Position numbers and translations under genes: made by a program. Shown piece by piece: positions 52,755 to 57,956 of a stretch of DNA of 64,000 nucleotides (within the stretch, counting starts at the first letter, position 1; each line of letters starts with the position of its first letter). Source of the stretch: an uncultured delta proteobacterium. GTDB lineage: Bacteria; Desulfobacterota; Binatia; Binatales; Binataceae. The notes beneath the pieces are model-generated. The model was not told the origin of the DNA and searched no databases. It worked only from the letters and a program-made list of their open reading frames with translations. The DNA is taken from the NCBI GenBank assembly GCA_963724765.1, contig CAVRVY010000003.1, forward strand, positions 608,001 to 672,000, read 5' to 3'.

Positions 52755-52830
52755 GCCACCCTAGCTCAGTTGGTAGAGCAGCTGATTCGTAATCAGCAGG
52801 TCGTCGGTTCGAATCCGACGGGTGGCTCCA
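52755..52830 (+). tRNA. tRNA-Thr (CGT)
   Basis: Cloverleaf: GCCACCC/GGGTGGC acceptor stem, GCTGA-TTCGTAA-TCAGC anticodon arm, TTCGAAT loop, encoded CCA. Confidence 0.98.
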
Positions 52831-53371: not shown

Positions 53372-53919
53372 GACTCACCTCCATCGACGAGTTGAAAGTC
53401 ATTCCTCTGCTTCAGCAGGTGATCGTCACTAAGCCGCAAGTTCCCGTCGTGGGTGTGGCTACGGAACATAAGATCGGTTGATCTTCGTCAGACACAAGCT
53501 ATCCGTCTCCGATTTGGCGGCGGCATGATCTCCGCCGATCGCGGGGCGCGGGATAGACCCGCGTCGGACCCACCTTCATCTCGACGTCGGGCGGCATCTT
53601 CCAGAGTACCTGCCTTCGAACAGCGCGATCAAACCGCAGGACATGAGTTGGAGCGGAGCCGGGAATGCCTGGCGATCTAGGTGGACGCATCACTGACCGA
53701 CGCGTCGGTAACCAGAGTCTGGACGGCGATGCTTGCGTTTCGCCGCGTCGCCAACACCGAACGTTGCGTTCGCCAACAACAGGAATCGGCACCGAATTCC
53801 TCGCGCACAGAGAGAAAATCGAAGTGACGCGGCATAGTTCGACATGTGGAGGTCAACCCAGCCGTCTCGCGCGGATAGAACGGGCGGGCGATCTTGGCGC
53901 GCGGATACGTTGACAACGC

Positions 53920-54462
53920 CTATCCACGCTCGACACTGGCTAATGATGGACCATTGTAGTGATAGTCTTGGCGACACGCCTGCATCAGCGCGCGCATATC
54001 TTGCCGGAGTTCCTCGAGCGTCGGCCGCCCAACAAACCACCAACCCTCATAGATCGCGTGGATCGTCAGGTCAGGAGCCAGGGAAAAGGTATAGGGAAGG
54101 GCGACCAGGCCGTATCTGAAATCCGGTGGGGTCACTTCCACGATATCGAGTTGCCGGATGGCCCGACGCTCGTGGTCACTGAGAAACGTATACGTCGCAG
54201 CCAGTCCGGCGCGGAAGGCCGCGCTCACTTCTGGCGGGTCGGTGCTGACGACGGCCAGCTTACAGTAGTTGACCTGCAAGTCCTCTTGTAATTCGACGAA
54301 GCGCCGCAACTGCAGCGCGCATTTCGGTCACCAATAGCCACGGTAGAAGCTCAGGATCAGCGGAAAGCCACTCGCCAGTTCAGACAGCGTGATCAGTTGC
54401 TGCCGATGATCGGGTACCGTCAAGTCCGGGAATCGTTTGCCCACAGCGAGATCGGAATGCAT
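53920..54462 (-). CDS. AhpC/TSA-like redoxin, probable selenoprotein (UxxC)
   Basis: AAGGAG RBS; MHSDLAVGKRFPDLTVPD...LILSFYRGYW-TGA-PKC continues in frame into the 53920 ORF; TGA at 54328-54330; SECIS-like hairpin follows. Confidence 0.85.
54301..54327 (-). promoter_or_regulatory. Putative bacterial SECIS element
   Basis: UGA-CCGAAAUGC-GCGCUGC-AGUU-GCGGCGC: 7-bp stem, apical loop with G at position 2, 16 nt between UGA and loop. Confidence 0.7.
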
Positions 54463-54514
54463 AGGCATCTCCTTTCATGTCATAGCAACCGTCAATGGCG
54501 GCTGAGCGGTTTTC

Positions 54515-55510
54515 CTAATGTGACCGAAACAACGCCACCAGAAAATAGCGCCGAGCGTCAAACCAGGTACGACGCAGAACGAGATTGGCCCGGTATCCTA
54601 AGTCACGGACTTCGTTCGGAGAATACTTATACGAACTTTCCGTATGAATCGTTTCATCTTTGCGAAACGATATGGCTTGCTCGATCTTGGCGATGGGCAC
54701 GTGCTGAGGCAGCCGGCTGCGGAGGTGCATCTCAATACGGCCCCTCTCAGCGTTGTAGAGGGCCACGTGCTCAAAGGTTTGCGGGTCAAACCGCCCGCCA
54801 AGTTCATAATTAATACGGTGGAGTACATTCTTGTTGAACGCAGCCGTGACGCCTTGGGCGTCGTCATAGGCCGGGACGAGGATCGCGGGCGATTTTTTCA
54901 GGTCGATACCCAGCAGAAAGACGTCCTCAGGTCCCAGAATGGCCGCCATACGCCGGAGGAACTCGACACTTTCTTCAGGCGTGAAGTTCCCCAGACTGGA
55001 CCCGAAAAAGGCCACGGCTTTCTTCTCCAGTTGAAACGCCTGAATGACCTCCGATTCTCCCGCGAAATCGGTATGCATGGCACGAATCTCAATATGGGTA
55101 AATTCCTGCAGGAGTCGGTTGGCCGTGTCCAAGAGGATTTCTCGAGAAATGTCTACCGGACAATAGCGAAACGGTTGCTCCGCCCGTTCATACGCCGTGA
55201 GGAGGTAACGGGTCTTTCTGGCATACCCGGAGCCGAACTCCACCAGCGCCAGGTGACCAATCTCGGCATGTATCTCGGCGGCATAGGTGCTGAGAATCTC
55301 CAATTCTGCCCGGTAGAGATAGTACTCGGGTAAGGCGCAAATCTGCTCGTAGAGTTGAGAGCCGCGCTCGTCATAAAAATACTTCGGCGGCAGCCATTTT
55401 TGTGGGGCGGTTAGGCCAAACGCCACGTCCCGCGCAAAGGCGTGCCGGTGCACCGCTACATCCATGTCATGAAACTGAAATCGCTTGTTGGGAATGGCCT
55501 CGGTCTCCAT
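54515..55510 (-). CDS. egtD: Histidine N-alpha-methyltransferase EgtD-like
   Basis: LPPKYFYDERGSQL, LPEYY, VEFGSG, AYDDAQGVTAAFNKNVL, IHTESSYKY. Confidence 0.9.
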   Translation of the reverse strand: METEAIPNKRFQFHDMDVAVHRHAFARDVAFGLTAPQKWLPPKYFYDERGSQLYEQICALPEYYLYRAELEILSTYAAEIHAEIGHLALVEFGSGYARKTRYLLTAYERAEQPFRYCPVDISREILLDTANRLLQEFTHIEIRAMHTDFAGESEVIQAFQLEKKAVAFFGSSLGNFTPEESVEFLRRMAAILGPEDVFLLGIDLKKSPAILVPAYDDAQGVTAAFNKNVLHRINYELGGRFDPQTFEHVALYNAERGRIEMHLRSRLPQHVPIAKIEQAISFRKDETIHTESSYKYSPNEVRDLGYRANLVLRRTWFDARRYFLVALFRSH

Positions 55511-55601: not shown

Positions 55602-56942
55602 TTACTCTCGGATCGTTCTGGCGAGCCGGATCCCCATGAACTGCCATCGGACATCGGCAGGGAAAAAGTTCCGATAAGTGGGCCGGATATGCGAAATCGA
55701 GGTCGCACACGACCCGCCGCGCAACACAAACTGGTTGGCCATAAATTTGCCGTTATACTCCCCCAACGCGCCTGGGGATGCGGTGTACCCGGGATAGGGG
55801 GAATAGTGACTTTGGGTCCACTCCCAAACGTCTCCAAAAATTTGGACCAGCGGGACAGCGCTGTCGATCTGACTGATGGGGACGGGATGGAAAGCTTGCT
55901 GCTCAACGAAATTACCCCTAATCAGCAGAGGCATCGCCGCAACTTCCCATTCGGCCTCGGTGGGCAAGCGCGCATCGGCCCAACGTGCGTAGGCGTCCGC
56001 TTCGTAATAACTGACATGACACACGGGTTCGGCTTCCCGCACGGATCGCATCCCGGCAAGGGTCATCATCCACCAGGTGCCATCGCGTTGTTCCCAATAC
56101 AGCGGAGCCTGCCACCCTTCGCGCCGGACCGTATCCCAACCCATGGACAGCCATAGCTCCGGCCGTTCATACCCCCCATCGGCCATGAAGGCCAAGTACT
56201 CCCCGTTGGTGACCAGCCGCGACGCCAACTCGAACCGCTCGACAAAGCTCCGATGTCGAGGGAACTCATTATCGAAGGCGAAACTCTGACCCTCGTGGCC
56301 AATCCAGTAGACGCCTTCGAGAAAGCTCACCCATCGGAGTGGGCCCACCGTCGGTACACTTGTGGGGATGTCGGCGGTTACATACGTAGGTCGCAGTGGG
56401 TTGCAGGCGAAGTTGTATTTCACGTCGGTCAAGAGAAGTTCTTGATGCTGTTGTTCATGGTGCAAGCCGAGCTCGACGACCGGAGACCAGCGCTCGAGCG
56501 TCTCGCCATGTAAACCTTCCAAAAAGGCGGTCATATGCTGGTCGACATGGGCTCGATAGCGATAGACCTCCTCAACGGCTGGACGTGAGAGTAGCCCCCG
56601 TTTGGGGCGGCAATGCCGCTCACCAGCCGCCACGTAATAGGAATTGAAGAGATACGCATAGGAGGGATGCGGCGATCTATAGCCCGGAGAAGCCAGGGCC
56701 AGAATAAAGGTTTCGAAAAACCAACTCGTGTGTGCCAGATGCCACTTAGGGGGGCTCACATCCGGCATGCCCTGAATGACGTAATCTTCCGTCATCAAAG
56801 GCTGGCAGAGTCGGTCGGTAAACTGTCGCACCTGATGGTAACGCCTGACAAGGGCCTCGTGGTGGGCAGTCTCAGCGAGACCATAGAGGACAGTTGCGCG
56901 ATGAATATTGTGATTGATGGGCACATTGCTCTCCTCTTCCAC
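55602..56942 (-). CDS. egtB: Ergothioneine sulfoxide synthase EgtB (type II-like)
   Basis: SPPKWHLAHT, LFNSYY, GLHHEQQHQELL Fe ligands, FGE domain, GALGEYNGKFM. Confidence 0.92.
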   Translation of the reverse strand: MEEESNVPINHNIHRATVLYGLAETAHHEALVRRYHQVRQFTDRLCQPLMTEDYVIQGMPDVSPPKWHLAHTSWFFETFILALASPGYRSPHPSYAYLFNSYYVAAGERHCRPKRGLLSRPAVEEVYRYRAHVDQHMTAFLEGLHGETLERWSPVVELGLHHEQQHQELLLTDVKYNFACNPLRPTYVTADIPTSVPTVGPLRWVSFLEGVYWIGHEGQSFAFDNEFPRHRSFVERFELASRLVTNGEYLAFMADGGYERPELWLSMGWDTVRREGWQAPLYWEQRDGTWWMMTLAGMRSVREAEPVCHVSYYEADAYARWADARLPTEAEWEVAAMPLLIRGNFVEQQAFHPVPISQIDSAVPLVQIFGDVWEWTQSHYSPYPGYTASPGALGEYNGKFMANQFVLRGGSCATSISHIRPTYRNFFPADVRWQFMGIRLARTIRE

Positions 56943-56976: not shown

Positions 56977-57633
56977 TCAGCCTCGCGATTCTCGCACGAG
57001 ATCCACCAACTCGCCAAAGCTTTCGATGACGTGGTCCGGTGCGCACTGCAACAGCGCTTCCCGCGTGCCAAAGCCGTAGGTGACGGCACAGGTCTTGGTG
57101 CCGGCTGCCTTCCCTGCCAGGACATCGGCAGGGGTATCGCCGACCATCAGCGCGTGTGGCGGCGCACAGTGCAACACGGCGAGGGCCGCAAGTATGGTGT
57201 CGGGGGCGGGCTTGAGGCGCAGACCAGGGCTACCACCTTGAATGTGCTGGAAGAAGGGAATCAGGGCCAGCCGCCGCAAGACGATCTCCGCTTGCCCTGA
57301 CTCTTTGGTGGTGACGACGCCGAGCGTAAAGGTGGACAAGGCCTGTAAGGTGAGGATAACCCCAGGGTAGGGTCGGGTCAGGCAGGCGTCCTGCCGGGTA
57401 TATGTGCGGCGGTATGCGGTCAGGAAGGCGCTGAGCAGCGGGGGTGACAACATACCCCCGAGCTCGCTGAGCATCTTGGCGAGTGGCTTGCCGATGTGCT
57501 GGGCAATCGCGGTGGCGCTGGGCGGAATCCCACCAACCACAGTCCGCCAGGCGTTCTGAAACGCCACAGCGATGTCGCGCCGGGAATCGACCAGCGTGCC
57601 ATCGAGGTCACACAAGATGGTGGTGATTGTCAT
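56977..57633 (-). CDS. HAD family phosphatase (phosphoglycolate phosphatase-like)
   Basis: DLDGTLVDS, VVTTK, KPAP, MVGDTPADV. Confidence 0.9.
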   Translation of the reverse strand: MTITTILCDLDGTLVDSRRDIAVAFQNAWRTVVGGIPPSATAIAQHIGKPLAKMLSELGGMLSPPLLSAFLTAYRRTYTRQDACLTRPYPGVILTLQALSTFTLGVVTTKESGQAEIVLRRLALIPFFQHIQGGSPGLRLKPAPDTILAALAVLHCAPPHALMVGDTPADVLAGKAAGTKTCAVTYGFGTREALLQCAPDHVIESFGELVDLVRESRG

Positions 57634-57956
57634 GATCTTTCCTCGCGCCCAAGCCTCCTCTTTCATGCCCCTATCAAGCCATTACCTCAGGCCATCGCAT
57701 CTCCCGCTGCAGGCTGCGGTAACACCCAAGGCACGACATACGTAGGTAGCTACAAACTCAGCAGAGTCGAGCAATACCAACAATGGCTGCGCACGTCGGT
57801 GGAACATATCTATTCGTTACCATCGCGGCTGATTGGCGAACGGGTTACCGTACGCGATCGGGCGTATAATCCGCTCGCTGGTGCGCAGCCGGCAAGAATA
57901 ATTGTCGCTGATCGGCAAAAAACAATTCATCGCTGTACATTCTAAAATCGGTGCCC

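Follow-up and report, generated by a model that had tools for sequence, protein, structure and literature searches.

Within the 64,000-nt stretch of DNA analysed here (the window), a minus-strand gene encodes an AhpC/TSA-fold redoxin with an in-frame UGA at its redox centre, and we consider this locus, with a probability of roughly 0.88, to be a genuine selenoprotein gene, apparently transcribed together with egtB and egtD (Table 1). Reading the UGA as selenocysteine (Sec), as the original prediction had proposed, is favored by four lines of sequence evidence: conservation of the codon, cysteine forms among homologues, the Sec machinery of the genome, and a hairpin downstream of the UGA.

Table 1. 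Positions of the redoxin gene, its signals and its same-strand neighbours in the window.
Feature	Position	Strand	Basis
Selenoprotein CDS, 180-aa AhpC/TSA-fold redoxin (proposed)	53920..54462	(-)	Translation with TGA = U
SECIS-like hairpin	54301..54318	(-)	7-bp stem, loop AGUU, fold -12.0 kcal/mol
In-frame UGA, proposed U45	54328..54330	(-)	TGA conserved; aligns with Cys of homologues
Ribosome-binding site AAAGGAG	54469..54475	(-)	Direct reading; 6-nt spacer to ATG 54462-54460
egtD, L-histidine N-alpha-methyltransferase	54515..55510	(-)	TIGR03438, 362.2 bits (cut-off 290.9)
egtB, ergothioneine sulfoxide synthase	55602..56942	(-)	TIGR03440, 577.8 bits (cut-off 360)
HAD-family hydrolase	56977..57666	(-)	Only general HAD-IA subfamily models above cut-offs

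Under translation table 11 the locus yields only a 129-aa ORF opening with TTG (53920..54309) and a 46-aa ORF (54328..54468), which bears out the initial remark that the ORF track holds just the last 129 aa of the protein. When TGA is translated as U, MHSDLAVGKRFPDLTVPDH...LILSFYRGYW fills the 44 codons from the ATG at 54462 and is followed by TGA (54330-54328) and by P-K-C, giving the redox centre W44-U45-P46-K47-C48 in a frame that closes at TAG 53922-53920; ribosome-binding site, start codon, TGA and the continuation to about 180 aa all lie on the minus strand where they had been predicted. An extra ATG at 54468 abuts the ribosome-binding site and is absent from relatives, and the start is therefore placed at 54462; relatives likewise carry AAGGAG with a 6-nt spacer before their start. 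The best 120 database proteins matching the redoxin are all C-terminal pieces of 109-136 aa, so that gene callers evidently stop everywhere at this UGA; hundreds of public gene calls thus give a fragment without the active site, while the correct product would be the 180-aa selenoprotein.

Of 109 related loci, 108 have TGA at the U45 codon, or 101 of 102 after redundancy removal (37-99% identity), and the protein sequence is conserved on both sides of it down to 37% identity. The sole exception, locus L056, has TGC, and 20 distant full-length homologues carry Cys (18), Ser (1) or Asp (1) at the position of U45. A search for homologues with TGA or Cys at this position had been suggested, and both were found, which disposes of the idea of a private nonsense mutation. 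That the UGA is a plain stop, leaving either a pseudogene or two separate products (a peptide of 44 aa and, from TTG 54309, a protein of 129 aa), would agree with the two table 11 ORFs and with the 129-aa form in public gene calls; nevertheless, we regard it as scarcely credible, since a codon retained together with its flanking protein in nearly all non-redundant loci argues against it, TTG 54309 lies within the hairpin and has no ribosome-binding site, and in the 129-aa product strands 1 and 2 of the fold would be missing, as would its redox centre.

The genome also encodes what Sec decoding requires. A tRNA-Sec with anticodon tca was found (70.2 bits; called SeC by ARAGORN), as were selA (560.9 bits), selB (383.3 bits) and selD (388.3 bits), each of the three exceeding its cut-off, and the look-up of selABCD suggested at the outset thus returned the complete set. 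Bacteria can read through UGA codons that precede a C; beyond this general behavior, nothing specific favors a standard amino acid at this codon, whether Trp, Cys, or Gly, through near-cognate reading or an altered code. TGA is an ordinary stop in the redoxin orthologues L026, L028, L053, and L056, the Sec machinery is complete, and the codon sits at the catalytic Cys position with a conserved hairpin downstream; decoding as a standard amino acid is accordingly very improbable. Sec insertion, the reading we prefer, is also in line with the rest of the genome, where 4 of 21 AhpC/TSA matches contain TGA, so that such redoxins are common in it, and where selD and three further AhpC/TSA-type genes each have one in-frame TGA at a redox motif. 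This Binataceae-like soil bacterium holds at least five UGA-bearing redox genes. In the available part of the BSepDB supplement, Binatia genomes appear among Sec users, and no match to 'Prx-like' or 'AhpC' occurs among the entries listed.

The hairpin is formed by GCGCUGC (54318-54312), the AGUU loop (54311-54308) and GCGGCGC (54307-54301), and 16 nt separate the A of UGA from the loop. According to the available text of PMC13188914, the bacterial SECIS model has a loop of 3-9 nt, a stem of 4-16 bp, a spacing of 16-37 nt from the UGA, a G among the first two loop nucleotides, and an energy of -7.5 kcal/mol or lower. The hairpin of the window, with its 4-nt loop, 7 bp, 16 nt, and -12.0 kcal/mol, lies inside all of these published ranges, and the stem, loop, spacing, and fit to the model described by the original prediction are confirmed against that text. 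Taken alone, it is the most stable of 170 in-frame offsets in the redoxin gene, and 7 of 300 synonymous recodings were equally stable. The whole 66-nt fold did not differ significantly from shuffled sequences (z = -1.11, with 26 of 200 shuffles equally good), and an Rfam search of 53800-54600 at E up to 10 gave 0 family matches.

Comparison with relatives points to conservation of this structure. Of 85 unique relatives, 79 share the column at which the 5' arm ends, and at least 13 different arm pairs retain pairing. RNAalifold returned no consensus for all 85 ungapped segments, since the 3' arm is not in one register throughout (the loop has 4, 6, or 7 nt), and pairs were therefore counted on two register sets. 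Hairpin covariation was 0.213 against 0.063 after shuffling in one set and 0.145 against 0.079 in the other, and in each set 0 of 500 shuffles reached the observed score; these values are inflated both by sorting the sets by best register, which is partly circular, and by the relatedness of the sequences. Changes in the stem are compensatory: one pair, for instance, is U-A in 23 sequences and C-G in 11, with 0 mismatches. The median hairpin energy is -7.1 kcal/mol, against -1.6 kcal/mol for synonymous recodings, although the hairpins of many relatives reach only -6.4 to -7.1 kcal/mol, weaker than the -7.5 kcal/mol of the model, and 3 of the 85 have a G.G mismatch in the stem. L056, the sole Cys-form DNA and hence a single sequence, has no comparable hairpin; the Cys homologue P0140, used as a query against 200 additional genomes of the phylum, gave no further Cys-form DNA at E values up to 1e-20.

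As to the protein, Pfam assigns the redoxin to AhpC-TSA (PF00578; 3.8e-21, 75.7 bits against a cut-off of 26), and its AlphaFold2 model (mean pLDDT 91.2) has a helix starting at residue 46 and was matched by Foldseek to BCP/PrxQ, AhpE, and ResA (TM 0.64-0.79). NCBIfam holds no specific model for it, the best being the SelL-related NF040769 (34.8 bits against a cut-off of 120). The subfamily is marked by FPD..LPDH, RG-x-W-U-P-K-C, FLSD, and GRPT.EELR.DLR. In HMMER alignments to ResA chains, U45 aligns with Cys74 and the invariant Pro123 with the cis-Pro, so that the initial placing of the TGA at the first Cys of a CxxC motif holds with respect to ResA, whereas structurally this is not the peroxidatic Cys of peroxiredoxins. 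BCP/PrxQ and AhpE (5epf, 2cx3, 3hjp, 1xxu) share the AhpC/TSA scaffold and are the best matches in both sequence (5epf, 1e-15) and fold (3hjp, TM 0.79), and these matches, together with the Pfam family, would suit a true peroxiredoxin that reduces H2O2 or organic hydroperoxides as a thiol or selenol peroxidase. However, the catalytic pattern of that family (Pro, Thr, peroxidatic Cys, and distal Arg) is not kept. P-x-x-x-T-x-x-C of 5epf aligns with R-G-Y-W-U-P-K-C, which puts Arg in place of the peroxiredoxin Pro and U at the Thr position; the distal Arg of 5epf (V-K-R-T-T-F) aligns with Pro123; and relatives with U-P-K-D or C-P-[KR]-[DE] have no Cys at the peroxidatic position, where D or E is found in most of the family. 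A peroxidase is thus improbable, and by its sequence the signature of the redoxin is ResA-like (CxxC position and cis-Pro), not peroxiredoxin-like.

The redoxin closes a same-strand run in the order HAD hydrolase, egtB, egtD, redoxin, with gaps of 34 nt between the hydrolase and egtB, 91 nt between egtB and egtD, and 52 nt between egtD and the redoxin start. In relatives the hydrolase accompanies egtB, even where egtB is relocated downstream. Of 86 non-redundant loci that could be assessed, 39 have egtD as the immediate upstream neighbour of the redoxin, and in a well-supported redoxin clade (66 rows, SH-aLRT 100%) the two genes adjoin in 41 of the 57 rows open to assessment. Soil metatranscriptome contigs from three studies join the end of egtD with the redoxin start codon and the UGA (54115, 54165, and 54189 to 54579, 54574, and 54539, respectively); these strandless contigs represent relatives with about 95-96% identity, and RNA libraries can contain DNA. 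A promoter and terminator scan gave counts no higher than those expected from shuffling. Co-transcription with egtB and egtD, which the original prediction had also claimed, is thus supported by strand, gaps, conserved adjacency and bridging contigs, and not proven. Some stretches are without RNA-library cover, such as 54582-54764 in three of four runs.

How far this linkage reveals function is a separate matter. We give an even chance to the view that the redoxin is a genuine selenoprotein of general antioxidant or thiol-disulfide function, beside egtD because of a shared oxidative-stress regulon or lineage history. The family is wider than its egt link: adjacency was seen in 27 of 27 close loci and 12 of 28 more distant ones, and in 0 of 28 at 50-64% identity and 0 of 3 below 50%; furthermore, within up to 4-6 kb upstream, egtD is absent from 16 of 57 assessable clade loci and from all 29 outside the clade, and the abundance of AhpC/TSA genes in the genome, some with TGA, points the same way. 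Members of the clades without egtD neighbour an SDR, an NMT1-like binding protein, a monothiol CGFS glutaredoxin, DUF4197, or alcohol dehydrogenases, none of which recurs beside the redoxin of the window, and the more distant U-G-K-C clade has an unrelated neighbourhood. Against a purely general role, the adjacency persists where egtD has diverged to 38-41% identity and egtB has been rearranged, with tight intergenic gaps, mostly of 18-61 nt.

Returning to the selenoprotein itself, the established bacterial mechanism would have SelB, with Sec-tRNA(Sec), recognise the hairpin whose AGUU loop starts 16 nt past the UGA, so that the ribosome would insert Sec at codon 45 instead of stopping. Homology suggests that the product would be a cytoplasmic thioredoxin-fold redoxin of 180 aa on an AhpC/TSA scaffold, with U45 capping the N-terminus of helix 1, where ResA-type CxxC oxidoreductases have their attacking Cys, and C48 one turn further on. 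The selenolate of U45 may attack an oxidised sulfur substrate, C48 would then resolve the adduct to a selenenylsulfide, and the centre would be re-reduced by a donor of the thioredoxin or thiol type. Candidate substrates are ergothioneine sulfenic acid from the C-S lyase step and the ergothioneine disulfide formed under oxidative stress; gene context tentatively suggests oxidised ergothioneine species as the preferred ones. It is rather unlikely that the egtD-linked U-P-K-C clade represents a dedicated selenium-dependent ergothioneine redoxin that reduces the sulfenic acid, recycles the disulfide, or does both. If it did, it would supply the two-electron reduction that ends the EgtB/C-S-lyase route, and the ergothioneine supply of these soil bacteria would depend on selenium. 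In the available text of PMC4493562, the EgtE step requires a reductant whose physiological identity is left open, and the position of the redoxin behind egtD offers a lead on how bacteria reduce or recycle the oxidised forms of ergothioneine.

Compared with known ergothioneine clusters (mycobacterial egtABCDE and those with egtBD only), egtB and egtD stand in tandem here too, whereas no egtE or egtC was found above cut-off in the genome. A selenoneine pathway was considered and rejected: egtB was not accepted as SenA (336.9 against a cut-off of 420, while EgtB exceeds its own), nor was the neighbouring glycosyltransferase, a 440-aa protein with only weak GT4 matches, accepted as SenB. We did not find a redoxin or selenoprotein described in print as a third egt gene, and in the available text of the selenoproteome review PMC13188914 'ergothioneine' occurs 0 times and an egtD linkage of the Prx-like selenoprotein family has no mention; the linkage is possibly unusual and new. 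According to the available text of PMC8868364, mammalian thioredoxin reductase reduces ergothioneine disulfide in a selenium-dependent manner, the sole case of direct enzymatic recycling described in the texts consulted. That Sec-containing enzyme serves as an analogy for the proposed redoxin chemistry only, being a flavoenzyme whose fold and family are unrelated to the redoxin.

W-C-x-x-C of ResA and TlpA (1st9, 3c71, 1jfu) aligns with W-U-P-K-C, their cis-Pro motif L-P-T-T-F aligns with L-P-Y-T-F, and the fold TM is 0.64-0.66 for the redoxin as query and 0.81-0.84 for the target. Whereas ResA and TlpA are extracytoplasmic proteins anchored in the membrane, the redoxin begins its fold at residue 3, without N-terminal extension and apparently with no anchor or export signal, and differs further in having a proposed Sec for Cys and an extra conserved C-terminal helix (G-R-P-T-x-E-E-L-R). 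In the available text of PMC13188914, Prx-like thiol:disulfide oxidoreductase selenoproteins (PF00578, UxxC/UxxU; example WP_010940744.1) are 'predicted with high confidence'. To this catalogued family the redoxin belongs by domain and motif, the comparison with WP_010940744.1 being by description, and redoxin and family share PF00578, the U-x-x-C centre, one Sec (proposed here), and a bacterial SECIS just behind the UGA.

The selenoprotein gene at 53920..54462 is real, and re-reading of the minus strand bore out the original prediction in every detail (positions, ORFs, ribosome-binding site, start, frame and hairpin). Table 11 calls just two ORFs in the region, one of 129 aa starting at TTG 54309 and one of 46 aa that runs into the TGA. 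The ATG lies six bases past the ribosome-binding site and opens 44 codons (MHSDLAVGKRFPDLTVPDH...LILSFYRGYW) up to the TGA, followed by P-K-C and an open frame until the TAG. Since the alternative ATG abuts the ribosome-binding site and relatives (for example loci L024, L025 and L043) lack it, the start is placed at ATG 54462, giving a 180-aa redoxin with Sec45 in the centre W44-U45-P46-K47-C48.

Features of the redoxin locus, RNA-library contigs of relatives, and other AhpC/TSA-type genes of the own genome (G000)
Feature	Position	Strand	Remarks
Ribosome-binding site AAAGGAG	54475-54469	-	direct reading
Start ATG	54462	-	
Alternative ATG	54468	-	
In-frame TGA	54330-54328	-	
Hairpin GCGCUGC / AGUU / GCGGCGC	54318-54301	-	fold; 16 nt from UGA to loop
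Stop TAG	53922-53920	-	
egtD	54515-55510	-	TIGR03438, 362.2 bits vs cut-off 290.9; upstream of redoxin
egtB	55602-56942	-	TIGR03440, 577.8 vs cut-off 360
HAD hydrolase		-	upstream of egtB
tRNA-Thr (anticodon cgt)	52755-52830	+	~1.1 kb downstream of redoxin, opposite strand
GT4-type glycosyltransferase, 440 aa	57951-59273	+	divergent from the HAD-egtB-egtD-redoxin run
X15	54165-54574		soil metatranscriptome contig
X17	54115-54579		soil metatranscriptome contig
X16	54189-54539		soil metatranscriptome contig
L144	G000:C1:842154-842534		T-x-x-U peroxiredoxin, F-T-G-T-U-T-K-E-F-C
L145	G000:C2:98156-98554		redoxin with long C-terminal domain, D-W-U-P-Y-C
L146	G000:C3:1569544-1569954		redoxin, S-W-U-G-C

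Six-frame searching of 41 related genomes, the own genome among them, located the gene at 11 sites (37-99% identity), each with exactly one internal TGA. Among 18 loci from species-representative genomes, 17 carried TGA and one TGC (L056, a Solirubrobacterales MAG, W-W-C-P-K-E), and the metagenome scan gave 560 relatives among 601 candidate stretches, with TGA at the same codon in 80/80 of those kept. Over all scans, TGA was present in 108/109 loci (101/102 without duplicates), with protein sequence conserved both upstream and downstream of it. An exhaustive HMMER search returned 3107 relatives (E ≤ 0.001). In 20 full-length homologues (36-55% identity), the position of U45 held Cys 18 times, and Ser and Asp once each; the homologues P0137 and P0140 are Cys counterparts of the U-P-K-D form in loci L028 and L029. 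Furthermore, the own genome encodes tRNA-Sec (anticodon tca), selA (560.9 bits), selB (383.3) and selD (388.3). Sec machinery and TGA-bearing homologues, whose absence would have counted against the original prediction, were thus both found, and a private nonsense mutation is excluded.

Gene callers split this gene everywhere: the best 120 of 918 matches in the public protein collection were all C-terminal fragments (109-136 aa). A widespread mis-annotation is hereby corrected. In the own genome, selD itself has one in-frame TGA, as have three other AhpC/TSA-type genes, each at a redox motif (L144-L146), so that at least five UGA-bearing genes are present, selD counted. Paralogous redoxins in the relatives' genomes (L030-L038) carry H-W-U-P-F-C, A-W-U-P-Y-C or D-W-U-P-Y-C in 8/9 loci, with L036 as the single Cys form (A-W-C-P-F-C).

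The window's hairpin (7-bp stem, 4-nt loop AGUU, -12.0 kcal/mol) agrees throughout with the published bacterial SECIS model (PMC13188914), which allows a 4-16-bp stem, a 3-9-nt loop with G as its first or second base, a UGA-loop distance of 16-37 nt and energies no higher than -7.5 kcal/mol. Of 300 synonymous recodings, 7 were as stable, and its position was the best of 170 in-frame offsets within the gene; for the window, folding of the full 66 nt gave no significant result, and an Rfam search at the locus gave no match. Across 85 distinct TGA-bearing 66-nt segments, the 5' arm of the best perfect hairpin ended at a common column in 79, three lengthened that stem by 1-2 pairs, and three had one G.G mismatch. 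The loop measured 4, 6 or 7 nt depending on subclade. Arm pairs of 13 or more kinds occurred, with compensated changes (GCGCC/GGCGC vs GUGCC/GGCAC; CAGGUGC/GCGCCUG vs CAGACGC/GCGUCUG) and, in L071, two amino-acid substitutions, one per arm (L to R and R to L), that restore pairing. In sets of related sequences sorted by best register, which qualifies both pair counts and covariation, 83.2% of cells were paired vs 71.2% shuffled for loop 4 (39 sequences; covariation score 0.213 vs 0.063) and 76.8% vs 73.2% for loop 6 (34 sequences; 0.145 vs 0.079), with 0/500 shuffles scoring as high in either set. Slid registers paired far worse than the real one in both sets, and one loop-6 pair alternated without any mismatch between U-A (23 sequences) and C-G (11). 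The median energy of 75 distinct cores was -7.1 kcal/mol vs -1.6 after synonymous recoding; the hairpins of many relatives are weaker than -7.5 kcal/mol.

Three soil metatranscriptome contigs, from three runs of three studies, all bridge the UGA, and X15 and X17 also bridge the egtD stop (59 and 64 nt); they derive from relatives about 95-96% identical, have no strand, and RNA libraries may contain DNA. The TGA is untouched by the 40 listed differences from the window (122 further exist).

The gaps redoxin-egtD, egtD-egtB and egtB-HAD hydrolase measure 52, 91 and 34 nt. The SenA score of egtB was below the SenA cut-off, and no egtE or egtC scored above cut-off anywhere in the own genome. The glycosyltransferase is not SenB-like and has only weak matches (MshA, 39.5 bits). 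Counting loci whose upstream sequence covers 700 nt or more, egtD lay directly upstream on the same strand in 27/27 at 78% or more redoxin identity, 12/28 at 65-77%, 0/28 at 50-64% and 0/3 below 50%. In the 65-77% group, EgtD is just 38-41% identical to the window's, yet a true equivalog (354 bits), and the EgtB-family gene is divergent, on the opposite strand; in L048, L051 and L052, egtB is now downstream, with egtD and redoxin still together. A quick maximum-likelihood tree built from 99 proteins placed every one of the 41 egtD-linked rows in a single 66-row clade (100% SH-aLRT), in which 16 rows were unlinked and 9 not assessable, the linkage state changing at least 5 times.

In the second clade (L053, L081, L085, L092, L094), the EgtB-family gene lying divergent to egtD falls below cut-offs (EgtB 265.6 vs 360, OvoA N-terminal domain 266.8 vs 400, SenA 241.9 vs 420) and is a sulfoxide-synthase relative assignable to none of these three types. 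In one relative (L022, L042), the egtD match breaks into residues 1-304 and 303-329, read in different frames, which may reflect a frameshift or an assembly error. In 25 loci of the U-G-K-C clade (54-61% identity; L026, L027, L054, L113-L136), the Sec redoxin is followed, a few hundred bases on, by a monothiol glutaredoxin (P-Q-C-G-F-S), and many of these loci have a short conserved ORF ending in ...P-A-Q-W-E-K-L-G between the two.

Regarding substrate, there is about an even chance that this is a general antioxidant redoxin merely sharing regulation with the egt genes. Because EgtE-type C-S lyase releases ergothioneine sulfenic acid, which without reductant disproportionates to sulfinic acid and for whose reduction in vivo "natural thiols might serve" (PMC4493562), and because ergothioneine disulfide reduction by mammalian thioredoxin reductase is Sec-dependent (PMC8868364), the Sec redoxin behind egtD is, from gene context, a plausible candidate for the reduction of oxidised ergothioneine species (probability roughly 0.35). 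Whatever the substrate, established knowledge suggests that Sec would be inserted at U45 by a SelB-dependent route, the selenolate would attack an oxidised sulfur substrate, C48 would resolve the adduct to a selenenylsulfide, and a thioredoxin-like donor would re-reduce the centre. A literature search short of full texts turned up neither a redoxin nor a selenoprotein tied to egtBD, and the word "ergothioneine" occurs 0 times in a selenoproteome review (PMC13188914).

The protein matches Pfam AhpC/TSA (3.8e-21) and Redoxin, and no NCBIfam model at its cut-off. The AlphaFold2 model (pLDDT 91.2) predicts a thioredoxin-type fold with U45 immediately N-terminal to helix 46-64, and Foldseek matched BCP/PrxQ, AhpE, Prx6 and ResA (TM 0.64-0.79, 16-21% identity). 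The fold begins at residue 3, therefore leaving no room for a signal peptide, and the protein should be cytoplasmic. In the family alignment (A5; L028, L029, P0122-P0157), the +3 Cys is confined to the Sec clade around the window's redoxin (U-[PGA]-K-C), where selenocysteine thus comes paired with a resolving Cys; L028 and L029 have U-P-K-D, all 18 Cys forms C-P-[KR]-[DE], and the wider family is mostly one-Cys. Three distant Cys homologues (P0122, P0126, P0141) carry a cold-shock domain (Pfam CSD, 47.5-52.3 bits) as a C-terminal fusion, an unusual pairing of redoxin with a nucleic-acid-binding domain.

For the chemistry, profile alignments to two known proteins are decisive. Compared with peroxiredoxin 5epf (Y-P-A-A-M-T-P-G-C), U45 takes the Thr position, C48 that of the peroxidatic Cys and Pro123 that of the Prx Arg, whereas against ResA (W-C-E-P-C) U45 aligns with the first, attacking Cys and Pro123 with the cis-Pro (L-P-T-T-F vs L-P-Y-T-F). 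By these alignments and the +3 Cys distribution, the protein is a CxxC-type redoxin built on a Prx scaffold, not a peroxiredoxin proper. The selenium-ergothioneine link is offered as a testable candidate; the element itself is of a known kind, Sec use in Binatia (BSepDB) and the Prx-like UxxC family (PMC13188914) being already catalogued, and the redoxin belongs to what the literature calls "Prx-like thiol:disulfide oxidoreductase" selenoproteins (PF00578, UxxC), a family given there as a high-confidence prediction (PMC13188914).
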